Source: a virus (lineage: Duplodnaviria > Caudoviricetes). Taken from it: a stretch of DNA of 64,000 nucleotides. The stretch is from IMG/VR virus record IMGVR_UViG_3300021964_010723; one strand, given 5' to 3'. The position numbers and the translations under genes were made by a program. Positions 18,316 to 24,636 of this stretch are shown piece after piece. The first letter of the stretch is position 1, and each line of letters opens with the position of its first letter. The notes below the pieces were generated by a model. That model had not been told where the DNA came from, made no database searches, and saw nothing but the letters and a program-made list of their open reading frames with translations.

Positions 18316-18420
18316 TGATAACAGTGAGATAGAGCTAAGTCACTGATATCATCCTGTATCATTTCCGTTGCAATTCTCATCCCATGCTAGTATACTATAT
18401 GAACAGTGAGCGTAGAGCTT
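18316..18420 (+). promoter_or_regulatory. Early cassette P1 (operator class)
   Basis: Palindrome 18316-18351; TTGCAA(18368)-17-TATACT; GAGC-GTAGA-GCTT leader. Confidence 0.75.
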
Positions 18421-18451
18421 GCAATTTTACTAACACAAATGAGACAGTATT

Positions 18452-18748
18452 ATGTTAGAGCCTCGTGCAGCAAGAACGATCGTAAAATTAGTGCTCGGAG
18501 AAGATCGTGTAAGTCGTATGTATCGTTCATATACAGACTTAGATCGCTCATATCAGGGACGCTTAAATGGCTATCGTACTATGACATATCGTACGAATCA
18601 TTTTATGCCATTTTCTCTTGCAGATATAGACAGTATACGCAAGGCGCTCACAAGTGCAGATCCTAAAATCAAAGTTTATGGGACTGCTCATAACGGAGAG
18701 GGATACTTGCATTTAAAGATTCGCAATATAGACGCTCCCTCATATTAA
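18452..18748 (+). CDS. Hypothetical early protein
   Basis: ORF downstream of P1. Confidence 0.55.
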   Translation: MLEPRAARTIVKLVLGEDRVSRMYRSYTDLDRSYQGRLNGYRTMTYRTNHFMPFSLADIDSIRKALTSADPKIKVYGTAHNGEGYLHLKIRNIDAPSY

Positions 18749-18989
18749 TAATAACGAGGAGACAGAATGGATACTATTAAGAACGAGATACTGAATAGGC
18801 AGACAAGAGAGCTAGAACGGAATGCTCAGATCGCACGGATTAAGATCGTAGAACAAAAGATACGAGATTGGGACGTTCCCGGTTTAGGATTTGCGGGACT
18901 GAGGAGACTTGAACGACAACTGCAAGACCTAAAACACTCGGTTTGAGGAGACGACGAACAGCATCCACCGAGGGGCGATTTACCTAACA

Positions 18990-19121
18990 ATATCAGCGGG
19001 TTAGTGCTAAGTCACTGTGATCACAAGGGATCTTTTTTGTTGACTTTCCCAGTTCGATCCACTATACTATTAAGACAGTGAGCGAACAGCTCCAATTGCA
19101 AACTCCACACTAGGAGACTCC
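18990..19121 (+). promoter_or_regulatory. Early cassette P2 (operator class)
   Basis: Degenerate palindrome; TTGACT(19040)-17-TATACT; GAGC-GAACA-GCTC; CTCC-ACACTA-GGAG. Confidence 0.8.
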
Positions 19122-19352
19122 ATGAACAGTTTCACCCGCTCAGCCCATCCATACTACACAGACCGAGACTTCTGTGACAAGCTCACACTATACCGGACAG
19201 CCTGGAGTACCATACACGAGACCTATGTAGGACTCCGTGCGGTATGGCGTGATCCTAACAATGTTCCTGTCATCTCAGCCCATGTGCTAGGCACTCCTGA
19301 AGAGGAGACACATCTGTTCCGTCCAACTGAGTTGATCAACTACGTCCTCTAA
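19122..19352 (+). CDS. Hypothetical early protein
   Basis: Follows cassette SD. Confidence 0.65.
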   Translation: MNSFTRSAHPYYTDRDFCDKLTLYRTAWSTIHETYVGLRAVWRDPNNVPVISAHVLGTPEEETHLFRPTELINYVL

Positions 19353-19452
19353 AAAAATAAAAAAAATGGTTGACTTCCGAAAGGGAGTCAGCTATACTAT
19401 TAATACAGTGAGCGAACGGCTCTTCCTTCCAAAACTCCAACTAGGAGATCCA
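19351..19452 (+). promoter_or_regulatory. Early cassette P3 (A-tract class)
   Basis: A-tract; TTGACT(19370)-17-TATACT; GAGC-GAACG-GCTC; CTCC-AACTA-GGAG. Confidence 0.8.
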
Positions 19453-19773
19453 ATGCCAGAACTATCCAATACAGTTTACTCATTCTGCTCAGATCCCAGT
19501 CACGGTTGGCTAGCAGTTCCGCAGGCTGATCTCGCCCGTGTAGGTCTTTCCGCTGCAGACCTGTCAACATTCAGCTTTTGGGACGCGGAATACTTCTACT
19601 TAGAAGAGGACATGGACTATGCGATCTTCTGTCGTGCCTTTGAGCGCACCGTAGGTCACGCTCCAAACGTGAGATTTATTCCCTCAACAAGAGGCAGACA
19701 TTCAATCCGCCGCAAGAACCGCAACATCATTGGTTGTACAGACAGTTCAAAACTCATCTCTCTAATGGTATAA
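19453..19773 (+). CDS. Hypothetical early protein (true start MPELS)
   Basis: ATG after the cassette SD; SDPSHGWLAVP...YLEEDMD motif. Confidence 0.7.
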   Translation: MPELSNTVYSFCSDPSHGWLAVPQADLARVGLSAADLSTFSFWDAEYFYLEEDMDYAIFCRAFERTVGHAPNVRFIPSTRGRHSIRRKNRNIIGCTDSSKLISLMV

Positions 19774-19955
19774 AATGGAAGTAGAAGCAATCGTAAGGAT
19801 CACGTTAAAGGACGGATATGACCTTTCAAACCCAGATCGCGTCATAGAAGTGCTTAATGAAATGGATTATGAGTTTACACACGAGGCGATCGAAGACACT
19901 GAAATCGTAGACATCAATTGGGAGATTGACTGATGACATAAAAGATCCTTAACAA

Positions 19956-20089
19956 GATCAGTGACTTACAGCTAAGTCACTGATCCTACAGGGAATCATT
20001 TTTGTTGATTTTTTTGCCCCAATCAACTATACTATTAAGACAGTGAGCGATTAGCTCGTCCTTCCAATAACTCCAACTACGGAGATCCA
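19956..20089 (+). promoter_or_regulatory. Early cassette P4 (operator class)
   Basis: Perfect palindrome GATCAGTGACTTA-CAGC-TAAGTCACTGATC; TTGATT(20005)-17-TATACT; GAGC-GATTA-GCTC; CTCC-AACTAC-GGAG. Confidence 0.85.
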
Positions 20090-20296
20090 ATGTCAAGCAT
20101 TCCATTCGTTAGCAGAGCACAGATGACTTTCCGCCCAAAAGCAGAAAAGCGCTCAAGGAACTTGGACGCAGACCTGCGCACGAGCCAAGTCTACCTACTA
20201 GAGGGCAGGACTGTTGAGGAGACTATGAAGTCAGCTCGTCTAAACAATCGTCGCTACGAAATGATCGGAGGCAAGAAATTTTTGGTAGTCAGCTAA
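20090..20296 (+). CDS. Hypothetical basic early protein
   Basis: Follows cassette SD. Confidence 0.65.
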   Translation: MSSIPFVSRAQMTFRPKAEKRSRNLDADLRTSQVYLLEGRTVEETMKSARLNNRRYEMIGGKKFLVVS

Positions 20297-20387
20297 AAAA
20301 AAGGTTGACGGCAGGGCCTCGCCCTGCTATACTATTAAGACAGTGAGCGAAAAGCTCTTCCTTCCAAAACTCCAACCGGGAGATCCA
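20294..20387 (+). promoter_or_regulatory. Early cassette P5 (A-tract class)
   Basis: TTGACG(20305)-GCAGGGCCTCGCCCTGC-TATACT; GAGC-GAAAA-GCTC; CTCC-AACCG-GGAG. Confidence 0.85.
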
Positions 20388-23106: not shown

Positions 23107-23182
23107 GGGGGATTAGCTCAGCTGGGAGAGCGCTTGATTTGCATTCAAGAGGTCAGCAGTTCGATCCTGCTATCCTCCACCA
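23107..23182 (+). tRNA. tRNA-Ala(UGC)
   Basis: CTTGA-TT-TGC-AT-TCAAG arm; G3:U70 wobble in GGGGGAT/ATCCTCC; CCA. Confidence 0.93.
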
Positions 23183-23191
23183 CACTTCACG

Positions 23192-23434
23192 ATGAGAATC
23201 ACAATGACAACGATCCAGAAACGATACAATAAACTAAGACAGATGTCAATCCAGGAATTAGAAACAGAACGATCCAGTCTGTATGACGCGATGGCAGAAG
23301 AAGAAGCAGATCCCTACGGAGGATGGGGCAGCTGTCTCCACGACAGCCTAAGCCTGGATGTGTCAATTGTAGAAGAGGTGCTGGACGAAAAAAAGAAAGC
23401 CAACAAGATCAATGACTTAGCCCTAACCTGCTGA
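23192..23434 (+). CDS. Hypothetical acidic protein
   Basis: ORF downstream of the tRNA pair. Confidence 0.5.
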   Translation: MRITMTTIQKRYNKLRQMSIQELETERSSLYDAMAEEEADPYGGWGSCLHDSLSLDVSIVEEVLDEKKKANKINDLALTC

Positions 23435-23527
23435 TATCACAAGAGATCTTTTCTGTTGATTTTTTGGACCGGATCAGATATACTATATGCATAGTGAATG
23501 ATACCACAACGCCAACTAGGAGCGAAC
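23407..23527 (+). promoter_or_regulatory. Early cassette P9 (operator class)
   Basis: GATCAATGACTTA-GCCC-TAACCTGCTGAT; TTGATT(23456)-17-TATACT; SD AGGAG. Confidence 0.75.
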
Positions 23528-23722
23528 ATGACACGAGAGCAGATCCAACAAGCAACACAGGCATTCCTTGCAAACGGCGGAGAGATCCAGAAGATGCCAG
23601 AGCGCAAATCCTACACCTGGGCAGACATCAGCACGATGCTGGAGAGGATACTAGATCAGGTAGACGGCATTGATGACGAAGTTGAAGCAGGAGGATATGA
23701 CGAAGCCGCAGTAGGAATTTGA
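23528..23722 (+). CDS. Hypothetical early protein (true start MTREQ)
   Basis: ATG after SD; AFLANGGEIQK motif. Confidence 0.65.
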   Translation: MTREQIQQATQAFLANGGEIQKMPERKSYTWADISTMLERILDQVDGIDDEVEAGGYDEAAVGI

Positions 23723-23824
23723 AAATAATTTAAAAAAATGGTTGACTTCTCCGCAGGAGTCAACTATACTATATAGACACTGAGCGAACAGCTCCACTCC
23801 GCCCACTCCACACTAGGAGACCAC
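23722..23824 (+). promoter_or_regulatory. Early cassette P10 (A-tract class)
   Basis: TTGACT(23742)-17-TATACT; GAGC-GAACA-GCTC; CTCC-ACACTA-GGAG. Confidence 0.85.
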
Positions 23825-24052
23825 ATGCCACAGTCAGTTTACCACATCCAACTACAAGAGATCCAAGAAGAGATTGATCTGCTGAACGAAGCTTGCAGCA
23901 GGCCAGAAGAAGACGAGTTCCAGATCATGCGTTGGAGAGATCGTATCTTTGATCTAGAGCAGGAGCAGATCTTAATTGAGCAGCGACAGGAAGAGCTGGA
24001 TCAGATGGACGACGACTACGCCTTGTTCGAAGACTTCATCGAATTCGTTTAA
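23825..24052 (+). CDS. Acidic coiled-coil hypothetical protein
   Basis: Follows cassette SD. Confidence 0.65.
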   Translation: MPQSVYHIQLQEIQEEIDLLNEACSRPEEDEFQIMRWRDRIFDLEQEQILIEQRQEELDQMDDDYALFEDFIEFV

Positions 24053-24072
24053 CAATCACTGAGGAGATATCA

Positions 24073-24291
24073 ATGAGTGTAGCAGCCAACATGAACTTCA
24101 TTTGGGGCGCCATTGCCAACAAGAGCCGCACAATGATCCAAACAGATCAGGGACCAATGAAGATCTTTTCCATCCGCACCAAGGCAGGAGTGGATATGGA
24201 GATCATGGCCGTCAACAACCAAGCCAACAACCACACCTTCATCACAGTCACTCCAGACAATTCGGGTGACATCAGATCACGACTTTTTTAA
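24073..24291 (+). CDS. Hypothetical protein
   Basis: SD GAGGAG. Confidence 0.6.
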   Translation: MSVAANMNFIWGAIANKSRTMIQTDQGPMKIFSIRTKAGVDMEIMAVNNQANNHTFITVTPDNSGDIRSRLF

Positions 24292-24312
24292 AAAAATAAC
24301 GGAGAGTTCCAA

Positions 24313-24531
24313 ATGACGCAAGCAATCCGATCAGCTTCAGGCCTAATCTCAGTCCTATTCTTCTTCATTGCAGTGGGCAGTGACAATTGGCCAGCCACAC
24401 TCTGTGCCGCAGCCATAGCGTTCTTGTTCGCTGTAGTAGAATACGAAGAAGCAAAAGAGCTAGGCTTCTTCAACAGACCCAAGGCGCAAAAGAAAATTTC
24501 CCTACAAAATCAACAGGTTGCACGTAAGTAA
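24313..24531 (+). CDS. Small two-TM membrane protein
   Basis: SD GGAG; two hydrophobic segments. Confidence 0.6.
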   Translation: MTQAIRSASGLISVLFFFIAVGSDNWPATLCAAAIAFLFAVVEYEEAKELGFFNRPKAQKKISLQNQQVARK

Positions 24532-24636
24532 CTGAAATTGCACAGGATCTTTTTTGTTGCTTTTTTTATGCTAGTAAACTATACTATTAAAACATTGCAG
24601 CTTGCTGCGTTTTTTAAATTGCATTAGGAGTTTACT
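24507..24636 (+). promoter_or_regulatory. Early cassette P11 (operator class)
   Basis: Degenerate palindrome with TAAGTAACTGA; TTGCTT(24557)-17-TATACT; GCAGC-TT-GCTGC leader. Confidence 0.7.

Follow-up and report, generated by a model that had tools for sequence, protein, structure and literature searches.

A marine jumbo myovirus island of promoter, stem-loop and leader cassettes resembling those of T4-like phages

Promoters and genes of the island

The window analyzed here is a 64-kb stretch of DNA (64,000 nt) from an uncultured marine jumbo myovirus. It contains a 6.3-kb island with 11 near-identical promoter, stem-loop and leader units fronting small genes. All 11 promoters (P1 to P11) listed in an earlier sequence-only reading were found on the + strand, each with a 17-bp spacer and TATACT; their -35 hexamers start at 18368, 19040, 19370, 20005, 20305, 20603, 21068, 22227, 23456, 23742, and 24557. 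The pattern TTG-N20-TATACT has 12 matches in the window (1.16 ± 1.07 expected), and the island promoters rank among the best sigma-70 matches of the region (9-11 of 12 positions). Past P11, no further TTG-N20-TATACT was found in the window, although plus-strand ORFs run to ~27378. A repeat search of the window, independent of the promoter pattern, arrived at these unit families too, with eight copies of 72 nt, five of 94 nt, and six of 70 nt.

The island has two composite architectures. Class A (P1, P2, P4, P9, and P11) has a ~75-bp long hairpin, with a T-run at its end, immediately before the -35. Class B (P3, P5, P6, P7, P8, and P10) has an A-tract, GG, and then a stem-loop within the -35/-10 spacer. 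The features are as follows (spacer energies are given against shuffled sequences).

6258-6286 (+): twelfth promoter, identical -35/-10 type, lying outside the island and lacking the shared leader (pattern search; kept in relative G003)
18288-18367 (+): class A upstream element of P1, two hairpins followed by a T-rich stretch that reaches the -35 (fold -23.8 kcal/mol, z -3.3; repeat family D3, homologous copies in relatives)
18368-18451 (+): cassette 1 promoter TTGCAA-N17-TATACT and leader, 5' hairpin GUGAGC/GCUUGC at 18406-18422 (pattern search, covariance model)
18452-18946 (+): cassette 1 ORFs of 98 aa (18452-18748; missing from relative L008) and 59 aa (18767-18946), no family found (ORF list, family search)
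18960-19039 (+): class A upstream element of P2, a decayed long palindrome (z +0.6 in the window; intact in relatives, e.g., L127)
19040-19121 (+): cassette 2 promoter TTGACT-N17-TATACT and leader, hairpin GAGC-GAACA-GCUC at 19080-19092 (pattern search, covariance model; promoter absent from L008)
19122-19352 (+): cassette 2 ORF, 76 aa (in related contigs behind class A, nine occurrences, and class B promoters, four occurrences)
19370-19452 (+): cassette 3, class B, A-tract and GG, promoter with an 8-bp stem-loop including the -35 hexamer, leader (spacer -14.7 vs. -3.6 kcal/mol; 0/100 shuffles as stable)
19453-19933 (+): cassette 3 ORFs, 106 and 52 aa (ORF list, family search)
19925-20004 (+): class A upstream element of P4, long hairpin with 13-bp upper stem, internal loop, and lower stem pairing A-run with T-run (-24.0 kcal/mol, z -4.5)
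20005-20089 (+): cassette 4 promoter TTGATT-N17-TATACT and leader (pattern search, covariance model)
20090-20296 (+): cassette 4 ORF, 68 aa (in related contigs behind class A and class B promoters, five occurrences each)
20305-20387 (+): cassette 5, class B, 7-bp G/C stem-loop in the spacer, leader with loop GAAAA (spacer -12.2 vs. -7.0 kcal/mol; 2/100 shuffles as stable)
20388-20594 (+): cassette 5 ORF, 68 aa (weak match to phrog_3703, function unknown)
20603-20686 (+): cassette 6, class B, TTGACA-N17-TATACT with weak spacer stem, leader with AUUUUU after the 5' hairpin (pattern search, spacer folding, terminator scan)
20687-21064 (+): cassette 6 ORF, 125 aa, phrog_1987, unknown function (PHROG match)
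21068-21149 (+): cassette 7, class B, 7-8 bp G/C spacer stem-loop, leader with 6-nt loop (spacer -12.4 vs. -5.6 kcal/mol; 1/100 shuffles as stable; compensatory stem variants in relatives)
21150-22151 (+): cassette 7 ORF, 333-aa AAA-type ATPase, phrog_1250 (PHROG match); the sole widely conserved island gene
22227-22311 (+): cassette 8, class B promoter whose spacer has no significant stem, leader loop GACAA (pattern search, spacer folding; leader z -3.4)
22312-23434 (+): cassette 8 body, ORFs of 91, 52, and 60 aa, tRNA-Pro (23026-23102), tRNA-Ala (23107-23182), and an 80-aa ORF (ORF list, family search)
23376-23455 (+): class A upstream element of P9, decayed, overlapping the end of the 80-aa ORF (folding, repeat family)
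23456-23527 (+): cassette 9 promoter TTGATT-N17-TATACT and short leader lacking the GAGC hairpin (pattern search, covariance model)
23528-23722 (+): cassette 9 ORF, 64 aa (in L173 preceded by a class B promoter and hairpin leader)
23742-23824 (+): cassette 10, class B, GTTGACT pairing with AGTCAAC at the spacer end, leader (spacer -11.3 vs. -4.0 kcal/mol; 2/100 shuffles as stable; in relatives stem kept, loop varies)
23825-24531 (+): cassette 10 ORFs, 75, 72, and 72 aa (in relatives an additional promoter before the third ORF)
24477-24556 (+): class A upstream element of P11, decayed (folding, repeat family)
24557-24636 (+): cassette 11 promoter TTGCTT-N17-TATACT, leader hairpin GCAGC/GCUGC and then G and U6 (in relatives stem kept or lengthened to 7-8 bp, loop changed)
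24637-24888 (+): first ORF behind P11, 83 aa (ORF list, family search)

Sixteen of the 18 island ORFs have no significant PHROG family.

Stem-loops at the promoters

Class B spacers (63 unique cores) fold at -6.4 kcal/mol compared to -3.6 kcal/mol for shuffled sequences. The spacer stem-loop is significant in four of the six class B promoters of the window (P3, P5, P7, and P10), and window folds of P6 and P8 gave no significant spacer stem-loop against shuffles. Many units have a spacer whose 3' end complements the -35 hexamer, and relatives carry compensatory stem changes and variable loops in the promoter stem-loops. With only moderate U content in the run that follows the class B spacer stems (UAUACUAUU), termination there may be weak.

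Class A elements have an A-run on one side and a T-run on the other, at a fixed distance from the -35. Long hairpins are significant at P1 and P4, and window folding gave no significant stem-loop for the elements of P2, P9, and P11. G-T wobble positions in the arms pair only in + strand RNA. There is a true compensatory change in one copy, and the arms are decayed in three of the five window copies. What the sequence-only reading called an operator is better seen as a long hairpin or palindrome with flanking A-run and T-run, resembling a terminator or processing site.

A hairpin at the SD had also been suggested. It is a 4-bp helix with modest enrichment (58% vs. 32% in shuffles), and it lacks covariation support because the helix is almost invariant. 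The multi-layer control that had been proposed (operator, spacer hairpin, leader hairpin, SD hairpin) is thus putative: as structures, the spacer stem-loops of four class B promoters and a small 5' leader hairpin are real, and the SD hairpin is weak.

The leader and its 5' hairpin

The predicted transcript start is the A seven bases after TATACT. Leaders are 45-50 nt from this position (37 nt for P9), and the 50-60 nt given previously applies when counting from the -10. A similar leader does follow most promoters: TATACTATTAAGACAGTGAGCG occurs eight times in the window at ≤3 mismatches (0 expected) and P1 bears ACAGTGAGCG, so a leader core is common to nine of the 11 cassettes, the exceptions being P9 and P11. 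In the 64-kb window, a leader covariance model matched exactly the 11 island sites and nowhere else. Overall it gave 239 matches, copies on overlapping contigs included, from 68 sources, namely the window plus 67 related loci. Conservation of the leader extends beyond the -35, -10, and SD in diverged relatives, so the sequence-only reading is not refuted by the leader comparison that it proposed.

The 5' leader hairpin is real but small. It has 4-6 bp and lies ~4-6 nt from the predicted 5' end, and the loop start is at one fixed position in 129 of 176 unique units. Pairing exceeds 90% in the inner 4 bp, where eight rows change A-U to G-C; the two outer pairs are kept in roughly half of the units. 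Paired cells amount to 85%, compared to 32-55% with the partner slid. Loops are 4-6 nt, occasionally 3-8; pentaloops occur in 112/176 units (commonest GAACA, GATTA, GACAA, and GAATA), and a GAGC/GCUC stem in 103/176. Because most stems are identical in sequence, much of the pairing reflects conservation or gene conversion, not independent compensation. Single leaders gain only modest stability over shuffles (z from -0.1 to -3.4; median near -1.2), and cassette 9 has no leader hairpin.

These elements could act as DNA. Operators for a dimeric repressor, with later shut-off of an early regulon, would then be formed by a palindrome at ~+5 to +21 and, at five promoters, by the upstream class A palindrome. 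The palindrome centre near +12/+13 is the classical position of a blocking operator, and the class A element, a conserved inverted repeat of ~75 bp, keeps a fixed distance to the -35. A DNA palindrome would explain the compensatory changes as well as an RNA helix would. Inner-stem departures are G-U and A-C in equal number (16 each), so RNA hairpin and DNA palindrome are not separated by these data. However, the varying distance between half-sites (the 4-6 nt loop, occasionally 3-8) disfavours a fixed-spacing operator, conservation of the half-site covers only 4 bp, and the outer pairs are inconstant. The class A elements also speak against operators by their + strand wobbles, true compensatory change, decay, and terminator-like A-run and T-run flanks, and no candidate repressor was identified. 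We consider operators unlikely.

Leader hairpins could also be promoter-proximal attenuators, in which case promoters would be equally strong and output would be set by termination at the hairpin and its U/C-tract. P11 would be the strongest case; its hairpin and U6 look like an intrinsic terminator or attenuator, with a stem maintained in relatives. A simple terminator scan picks the leader hairpins of P1, P6, and P11, and the tracts after the hairpins range from U-rich (AUUUUU, CUUUU) to U-poor (CCAAUU). Most leader stems, however, have just 4-6 bp (about -4 to -6 kcal/mol) and are followed by C-rich, not U-rich, sequence, so efficient termination is unlikely except at P11 and perhaps P1, P6, and P7. 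Attenuation is an improbable explanation for the leader hairpins.

In phages lambda and P22, antitermination depends on a boxB hairpin and an arginine-rich N peptide, and the boxB loops adopt a GNRA-like fold with one base extruded. The leader hairpin (GAGC, mostly a G-A-N-N-A loop, GCUC) might similarly be a recognition tag for one phage RNA-binding factor, e.g., a boxB/nut-like site for an N-like antiterminator. Such a factor would allow polymerase to read through the cassette stem-loops and the terminator-like P11 leader, a possible target for override, into distal genes. As in lambda and P22, early-type transcripts begin close to a small hairpin whose pentaloop is rich in G and A, and terminator-like structures lie downstream. 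Three of the four commonest pentaloops, the dominant loop size, could adopt a GNRA-like fold with one base extruded, and hairpin sequence conservation exceeds the need of a generic stabiliser. The candidate factor is an 81-aa ORF at 9949-10194, 8 kb upstream, with an arginine-rich N-terminus (MKGRTAQRIRRKAAIERL) that is conserved in seven homologue clusters. Its RRKAAIER part resembles the P22 N peptide. In relative L217, a 62%-identical homologue adjoins hairpin-bearing cassettes.

Several observations make this reading doubtful. No N protein or solved N peptide is significantly similar to the 81-aa protein, and the resemblance is an 8-residue motif that weakens to RQKSAVER in more distant homologues. 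No boxA-like element can fit upstream, where the RNA before the hairpin is just ~4-6 nt long. Unlike in lambda and P22, the closing pair is C-G and loops vary in length and sequence; loops of 4 and 6 nt exist, and GATTA and GACTA are unable to form a GNRA-like fold. The hairpin precedes nearly every gene here but occurs once per operon there, and with a promoter of its own, each gene would hardly need read-through. The 81-aa gene lies in a 10-kb block that is missing at the syntenic position of relative G005, where hairpin leaders remain. It is translationally coupled to its neighbours beside a 1847-aa virion-type protein, which suggests a different module. We give the N-like reading a low likelihood.

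Cassette exchange, known systems, and proposed function

Related contigs support a modular array of sigma-70-type promoter-leader cassettes before small, mostly family-less genes. In these contigs, which are fragments, the promoter type is restricted to one 6-8 kb island: a 144-kb contig has 12/12 sites inside 6.5 kb, and a 49.8-kb contig has 15/16 inside 7.7 kb, one of these sites probably being a chance match. The promoter/leader units are 70-100 bp and 60-91% identical to each other, and for this reason they act as recombination substrates. Comparison of the window with L008 or L006 reveals indels with both junctions inside promoter/leader repeats; L008, for example, has an extra cassette inserted at cassette 5, with both junctions within the repeat. 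Four ORF families occur behind both class A and class B promoters. At the level of contig comparison, cassettes are shown to have been inserted, deleted, and given different promoters among related phages. The proposal that cassettes shuffle through their repeats is borne out by this gain, loss, and re-pairing.

Unit similarity may instead be the remnant of a recent tandem duplication of one promoter region, with leader and stem-loops lacking functions of their own. The units are paralogous, with the identities given above, and many positions are simply invariant. However, the cassette architecture persists in G005, where cassette ORFs are only 41-63% identical, and loops and arm sequences change while stems stay. 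Promoter spacers are normally free to drift, yet here their 3' ends complement the -35 hexamer in many units. Sister clades have different homogenised promoter arrays of their own. A mere duplication remnant is very improbable.

The host-takeover module of Bacillus phage SPO1 and the pre-early and early clusters of coliphage T5 have dense, strong early promoters for host polymerase and strong SDs before many small genes within a few kb. These modules are situated in terminal repeats, and T5 early promoters are also reported to have sequence conservation in the initially transcribed region. The island similarly has dense early-type promoters and SDs before small genes, but it has no sequence relationship to either module, and we know of no description of cassette shuffling through repeats in them. 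Coliphage T7 has RNase III processing hairpins between early genes. The P1 and P4 class A elements may be comparable, being long two-part hairpins (lower stem, internal loop, 13-bp upper stem) between early-type genes and thus shaped like RNase III sites; in contrast to the T7 sites, they abut a promoter, and the P2, P9, and P11 copies are decayed in the window.

The phage is a PA5oct-like jumbo phage, Arenbergviridae-related. Pseudomonas phage PA5oct is its nearest cultured relative (TerL identity 54%), and the PA5oct homologue of the 333-aa ATPase is also preceded by GG-TTGACT-N17-TATACT. PA5oct depends on host RNA polymerase, with 32 putative TTGAC/TATAATA promoters; small uncharacterised ORFs in its long terminal repeat make up its early genes (PMC7318152). 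Promoter type and PA5oct transcriptomics (PMC7318152) suggest that the island genes would be expressed early and may act in host takeover.

Promoter-early stem-loop (PeSL) cassettes occur in T4-like phages RB49/phi1, T4/PST, and KVP40/nt-1 (Arbiol et al., 2010, PMC2839356; Comeau et al., 2014, PMC4122927), where experimental promoter, terminator, and mini-circle data exist. The island cassettes, known from sequence alone, match them. Both have a near-consensus sigma-70 promoter with a 17-bp spacer, an AT-rich tract upstream of the -35, a stem-loop mostly between -35 and -10 (the RB49 G-run, loop, and C-run recur at P5 and P7), and, closing the unit at its 3' end, an SD and ATG. In both, the elements cluster in a hyperplastic region of ORFans and flank differences between close relatives. 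The lineages differ (Straboviridae for PeSL), and the island has a second architecture, the ~75-bp long hairpin upstream of the -35. Its 5' leader hairpin, with some compensatory changes, is not described in PMC2839356 or PMC4122927. As far as contig fragments show, all copies lie in a single island here, whereas PeSL occupy several hyperplastic regions.

The island is probably the hyperplastic early-gene region of a PA5oct-related marine jumbo myovirus, made of PeSL-type composite cassettes. Each cassette would consist of an AT-tract resembling an UP element; a near-consensus host sigma-70 promoter (TTGAC-N17-TATACT); a stem-loop, in the spacer (class B) or upstream of the -35 with a terminal T-run (class A); a conserved start region (A-C/T-A-N-T); the 4-6 bp hairpin near the predicted 5' end; a C/A/U stretch poor in G; and a GGAG-type SD followed by a small gene without known family. 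At the onset of infection, host RNA polymerase would fire all cassettes. The promoter-associated stem-loops would stop or process transcripts from the preceding cassette, so that each unit would be insulated. The 5' hairpin would most likely shield the mRNA 5' end against 5'-end-dependent decay, and the unstructured G-poor stretch and strong SD would allow efficient translation. PeSL-type cassettes would thereby extend to another phage family, outside the T4-like phages, and the PeSL picture would gain a leader-start hairpin in which some changes are compensatory.

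The promoter-leader array and its phage

Twelve matches to TTG-N20-TATACT were counted in the window (1.16 ± 1.07 expected), and 11 of them belong to one island.

18316-24636, + strand: island of 11 promoters (P1 to P11, in order) with the units behind them (cassettes 1 to 11)
18368-24585, + strand: span of the 11 promoter sites, each with a 17-bp spacer

A sequence-only reading had placed 11 promoters with 17-bp spacers here, and all are confirmed. The boxes TTGNNN-N17-TATACT are present in 11/11 units and agree with the consensus at 9-11 of 12 positions. The likeness extends past the boxes, as that reading had also claimed: the TATACTATTAAGACAGTGAGCG extension has eight copies in the window with at most three mismatches (none expected), and ACAGTGAGCG is present in P1 too; P9 and P11 have other leaders, which lack the common extension. 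A repeat search independently returned the island units as families of 72, 94, and 70 nt with 60-91% identity. The units were aligned, and a covariance model of the leader was built from 38 leaders; in the 64-kb window it matches exactly the 11 island units and nothing else. Common to all units are the -35 box, the 17-bp spacer, TATACT, and an AT-rich discriminator. The start region A-C/T-A-N-T is invariant in the 38 aligned units, and the leader is conserved as far as a GGAG-type Shine-Dalgarno (SD) sequence, which lies 6-9 nt 5' of the ATG in most units. The leaders are similar, as proposed, but shorter than the 50-60 nt given for them: from the predicted start (the A seven bases past TATACT) they measure 45-50 nt, and that of P9 measures 37 nt. 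Judged from sequence, the promoter-leader array is real, statistically overwhelming, and well supported by relatives. A twelfth -35/-10 promoter, at 6258-6286, lies between tRNA genes, lacks the common leader, and is conserved in the related virus record G003.

The window encodes a DnaE-type polymerase fragment, a DnaB helicase, a large terminase (TerL), an 1847-aa virion-type protein, and five tRNAs. TerL has 54% identity to that of PA5oct (Arenbergviridae), a Pseudomonas jumbo phage, and its kin, with lower identity to Sinorhizobium and Erwinia jumbo phages. When 50,697 phage records were searched for DNA nearly identical to the island, only tRNAs matched and no close DNA relative emerged; the nearest virus record, G001, has neither the island nor this promoter type. 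Related contigs come from IMG/VR and many metagenomes, largely marine or coastal by record names. PA5oct depends on the RNA polymerase of its host; 32 putative promoters (TTGAC/TATAATA) are described for it, and small uncharacterized ORFs, most of them in the long terminal repeat, make up its early genes (PMC7318152). The promoter of the island's ATPase gene is recognizable in PA5oct too, as GG-TTGACT-N17-TATACT. In PA5oct (NC_071039) this promoter is at 4592-4620 ahead of the ATPase homologue gp126, in a run of small hypothetical genes beside a non-coding region annotated ncRNA004.

A PHROG search of 18 island ORFs left 16 without a significant family, in keeping with the proposal that the promoters front small unknown genes. 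Two did match: a 125-aa protein (phrog_1987, unknown function) and a 333-aa AAA-type ATPase (phrog_1250), the latter with homologues in more than 1300 phage records, many in phages of enterobacteria, Vibrio, Acinetobacter, and Aeromonas. Since these are the only significant matches, host takeover as the role of the island genes is a guess by analogy. TATAAATA, the late-promoter motif of T4, shows no enrichment (7 in the window vs. 8.8 expected) and so gives no handle on temporal classes. RegB (PF10715) had no match in five related fragments, nor in control genomes, which makes this negative uninformative.

The flanks of the island have features of their own. A 10-kb block (~7027-17330) holds an 81-aa ORF, a 352-aa ORF, and the gene for the 1847-aa protein. 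This block is missing from its syntenic place in the related record G005, and in G003 only residues 826-1847 of the 1847-aa protein align (51% identity), indicating that the region from the tRNA cluster to the island is itself highly plastic. Directly before the array, ~570 bp (17733-18300) have no convincing ORF in the ORF lists; within them are GAGTTAGAACTGTGAGATAGA-type repeats, a stretch rich in pyrimidines, and, at 18030-18153, an AT-rich block that repeats every 8 nt (ATTTGTAT-like). An origin, the boundary of a terminal repeat, and a regulatory region are candidate identities for this stretch. AGGCCCCGCTG occurs four times in the window (0.17 expected; 17329-17436, 22603-22613), three copies lying within 110 bp past the 1847-aa gene block and one after ORF 22312-22587; the copies are probably arms of terminator hairpins. 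GATC is strongly enriched in the island (69 sites vs. ~30 expected under a first-order model; 10.9 per kb, compared to 4.0 per kb elsewhere in the window) and is also enriched in the whole window (300 vs. 180). Some of these sites are in conserved GGAGATCC and GGATCTTTT motifs, and most are inside ORFs.

Promoter classes and exchange of cassettes

The promoters fall into two classes by the sequence upstream of the -35 box and by the position of their stem-loop, which lies inside the -35/-10 spacer (class B) or in a hairpin of ~75 bp upstream of the -35 (class A).

Promoter classes of the island
Class B (P3, P5, P6, P7, P8, P10): A6-8 then GG before the -35; usually a spacer stem-loop
Class A (P1, P2, P4, P9, P11): T4-6 then G before the -35; no spacer stem

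At P3 and P10 the -35 hexamer itself is the 5' arm of the stem (GTTGACT with AGTCAAC/AGTCAGC), and P5 and P7 have a G/C stem in the spacer. The proposed spacer hairpin thus holds for P3, P5, P7, and P10, four of the six class B promoters in the window, where stability is significantly above that of spacer shuffles; it does not hold for P6 and P8, and class A has none. Among 63 unique class B cores from relatives, mean folding energy is -6.4 kcal/mol, compared to -3.6 in shuffles. Changes in one arm of the stem are compensated in the other (GCAGGGCC, GCAGGAC, and GCAGCC, for instance, each have a matching 3' arm), and loops vary freely. Class A promoters have a conserved inverted repeat of ~75 bp upstream, whose left side, an A-run and GATCC, pairs with GGATC and a T-run on its right side, enclosing the inner stem CAGTGACTTA-N4-TAAGTCACTG. 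Folded as RNA, this repeat gives a long two-part hairpin at P4 and a related hairpin pair at P1, and these two of the five class A copies in the window are significant (z -4.5 and -3.3, respectively). The copies at P2, P9, and P11 are decayed in the window, with intact copies kept in relatives. G-T wobbles and one compensatory change (CAATGAC/GTCATTG) hint at pairing at the RNA level.

Mere duplication is a very unlikely reading of the similarity of the units, and comparison with relatives bears on how the cassettes have moved. The promoter type is concentrated in one place in other genomes as well: all 12 sites of a 144-kb related contig are within 135229-141713, and 15 of 16 sites of a 49.8-kb contig are within 7.7 kb, one of them probably a match by chance. 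Cassette gain and loss were found in the close relative L008 (ATPase 98% identical to that of the window) and in L006, with junctions in the promoter/leader repeats. Compared to L008, the window has an extra 98-aa ORF, whose junction is at the P1 leader hairpin, and promoter P2, which L008 lacks. L008 has extra cassettes at three places, and at each of these both junctions align to the flanking promoter/leader repeat. L006 and L008 also share a promoter, absent from the window, ahead of their homologue of ORF 24313. The cassettes also proved modular, as had been proposed: across the metagenome contigs, the ORFs of cassettes 2, 4, 6, and 9 are preceded by a class A or a class B promoter depending on the contig, and spacer families are swapped ahead of leaders and ORFs that stay the same. 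Promoter arrays are also present in sister clades (ATPase identity of 70% and 50%), where the leaders or spacers differ from those of the island and are homogenized within the array, which is the pattern of concerted evolution.

The sister-clade loci (L009, L040-L050, and others) have arrays of consensus promoters with homogenized, clade-specific flanks, such as a TATACT-GTAAGAACAAT start region that lacks the hairpin, or the conserved spacer AATAATTCCCAATTTGC. Cassette 8 includes tRNA-Pro(UGG) and tRNA-Ala(UGC) (23026-23182), downstream of P8; the corresponding stretch is ~100 nt shorter in L006, which therefore appears to be without both tRNAs.

Leader hairpins and their possible roles

Nine window leaders begin with a 4-6 bp hairpin, (GU)GAGC-loop-GCUC(AC). 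Hairpin counts were made on 176 unique units from the window and its relatives (dozens of metagenome contigs). The loop starts 15 nt past the -10 in 129 of them and is 5 nt long in 112, 4 nt in 20, and 6 nt in 16. Pentaloops are mostly G-A-N-N-A; GATTA is found in 19 units, and GACTA is also seen. For the inner stem, GAGC/GCUC accounts for 103 units and GAGC/GCUU for 16; the rest are covarying forms (GGGC/GCCC, UGGA/UCCA, and others). In an alignment of the 150 best-scoring model hits (103 distinct rows), the inner four pairs are more than 90% paired, with A-U replaced by G-C in eight rows. Overall pairing is 85%, compared to 32-55% with the partner slid, in an alignment that is fitted to the model and whose units are paralogues prone to gene conversion. 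The leader hairpin in the sequence-only reading is thus borne out by nine window leaders and by this contrast in pairing. Folding z-scores of single leaders are modest (-0.1 to -3.4), too small to carry the argument alone. A search of the leaders against Rfam gave no family, and only the two tRNAs scored.

Whether the pairing belongs to RNA or DNA was judged from departures in the inner stem. G-U and A-C departures tie at 16 each, so these counts do not prove RNA over DNA pairing. That the palindromes are DNA operators is an improbable reading, and the variable spacing of the arms speaks against a fixed dimeric operator. ACAGTGA is enriched (17 vs. 8.7), mostly through the leaders themselves, and the count gives no support for a half-site common to the class A palindrome.

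Between the hairpin and the SD, the leader is only 5% G. The SD hairpin of the earlier reading would be a sequestering helix, CUCC/GGAG, which is 96% paired in the model-based alignment and so nearly invariant that covariation cannot support it. Helices of at least 4 bp with the SD occur in 58% of 105 distinct leader middles, compared to 32% in composition-preserving shuffles. Such a hairpin is plausible but weak.

The P11 leader is of another kind.

24592-24620, + strand: P11 leader, directly past the promoter; hairpin GCAGC/GCUGC, then G and U6

It is conserved in all relatives, where the stem is kept or lengthened to 7-8 bp as the loop changes, and it looks like a promoter-proximal intrinsic terminator. 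It could release an RNA of ~30 nt or be a gate to a long downstream operon (24637-~27378). That leader hairpins in general are attenuators is an improbable reading, credible mainly for P11.

Alternatively, the 5' hairpin may be a dedicated tag by which a single trans-acting phage RNA-binding factor would recognize and control nine or more early transcripts, which we consider improbable. The boldest form, a boxB/N-like antitermination circuit in a jumbo myovirus, is equally doubtful; here the factor would be an arginine-rich protein, the product of the 81-aa ORF (9949-10194), and the P11 terminator would be the gate to distal genes. The grounds for this form are the G-A-N-N-A pentaloops and the basic N-terminus of the protein (MKGRTAQRIRRKAAIERL), and the protein co-occurs with hairpin leaders in the related locus L217. 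Its remainder is coiled-coil-like, and the ORF is translationally coupled to an upstream 65-aa ORF. Homologues form seven clusters, all of 81 aa, and across them the N-terminal motif erodes; the protein has no significant match in Pfam or among solved structures (PDB). IMG/VR holds two close copies only, and the syntenic module of the gene was not found in five sister-clade contigs. G005 lacks the 10-kb block with this gene at the syntenic place and keeps the hairpin leaders. The leaders themselves also argue against this form: only ~4-6 transcribed nt (ACAGU) precede the hairpin, too few for a boxA, and 4- and 6-nt loops as well as loops incompatible with a GNRA fold (GATTA, GACTA) are common. 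A boxB has a 5-bp stem with a GNRA-like pentaloop, and the stems here have 4-6 bp.

Comparison with PeSL cassettes

The promoter-early stem-loop (PeSL) cassettes of T4-like phages are the closest system described. Each has a sigma-70-like promoter with an AT-rich tract on its upstream side; its stem-loop is placed [quoted passage not shown] and an SD and ATG are at the end. Clustered in hyperplastic ORFan regions, these cassettes border the indels that separate close relatives, and experiments have demonstrated their strength as promoters, their terminator function, and their excision as mini-circles (PMC2839356; PMC4122927). Every defining feature of PeSL cassettes that can be read at the sequence level is found in the island. 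Sigma-70-like boxes with a ~17-bp spacer are present in 11/11 promoters, preceded by A6-8 and GG (class B) or T4-6 and G (class A). A stem-loop lies in or beside the promoter in 4/6 class B and 2/5 class A members in the window, though not in every copy, and an SD and start codon are at the 3' end of the conserved unit. The island is clustered and ORFan-rich, the promoter type is confined to one island in the 144-kb and 50-kb relatives, and the elements lie at the borders of insertions, deletions, and replacements that distinguish close relatives. The phage is not T4-like (Straboviridae) but kin of PA5oct by its TerL, a difference that concerns lineage rather than mechanism. Further differences on the island side are the class A architecture, the 5' hairpin conserved in the leaders, and the single-island distribution. 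The best explanation of the island is a set of PeSL-type early cassettes, here in a new phage lineage; apart from promoter identity and recombination, the mechanism is one that we infer.

Recombination-prone promoter/terminator cassettes would thus not be peculiar to T4-like phages, and in a widespread group of marine jumbo phages they would organize the early region of ORFans as well. The arrays offer abundant natural data on the swapping of promoters and small early genes by phages, and they provide a defined set of predicted strong, insulated promoter-leader parts. They also include a small conserved leader hairpin, for which 5' protection, attenuation, and protein binding are candidate roles that are directly testable.
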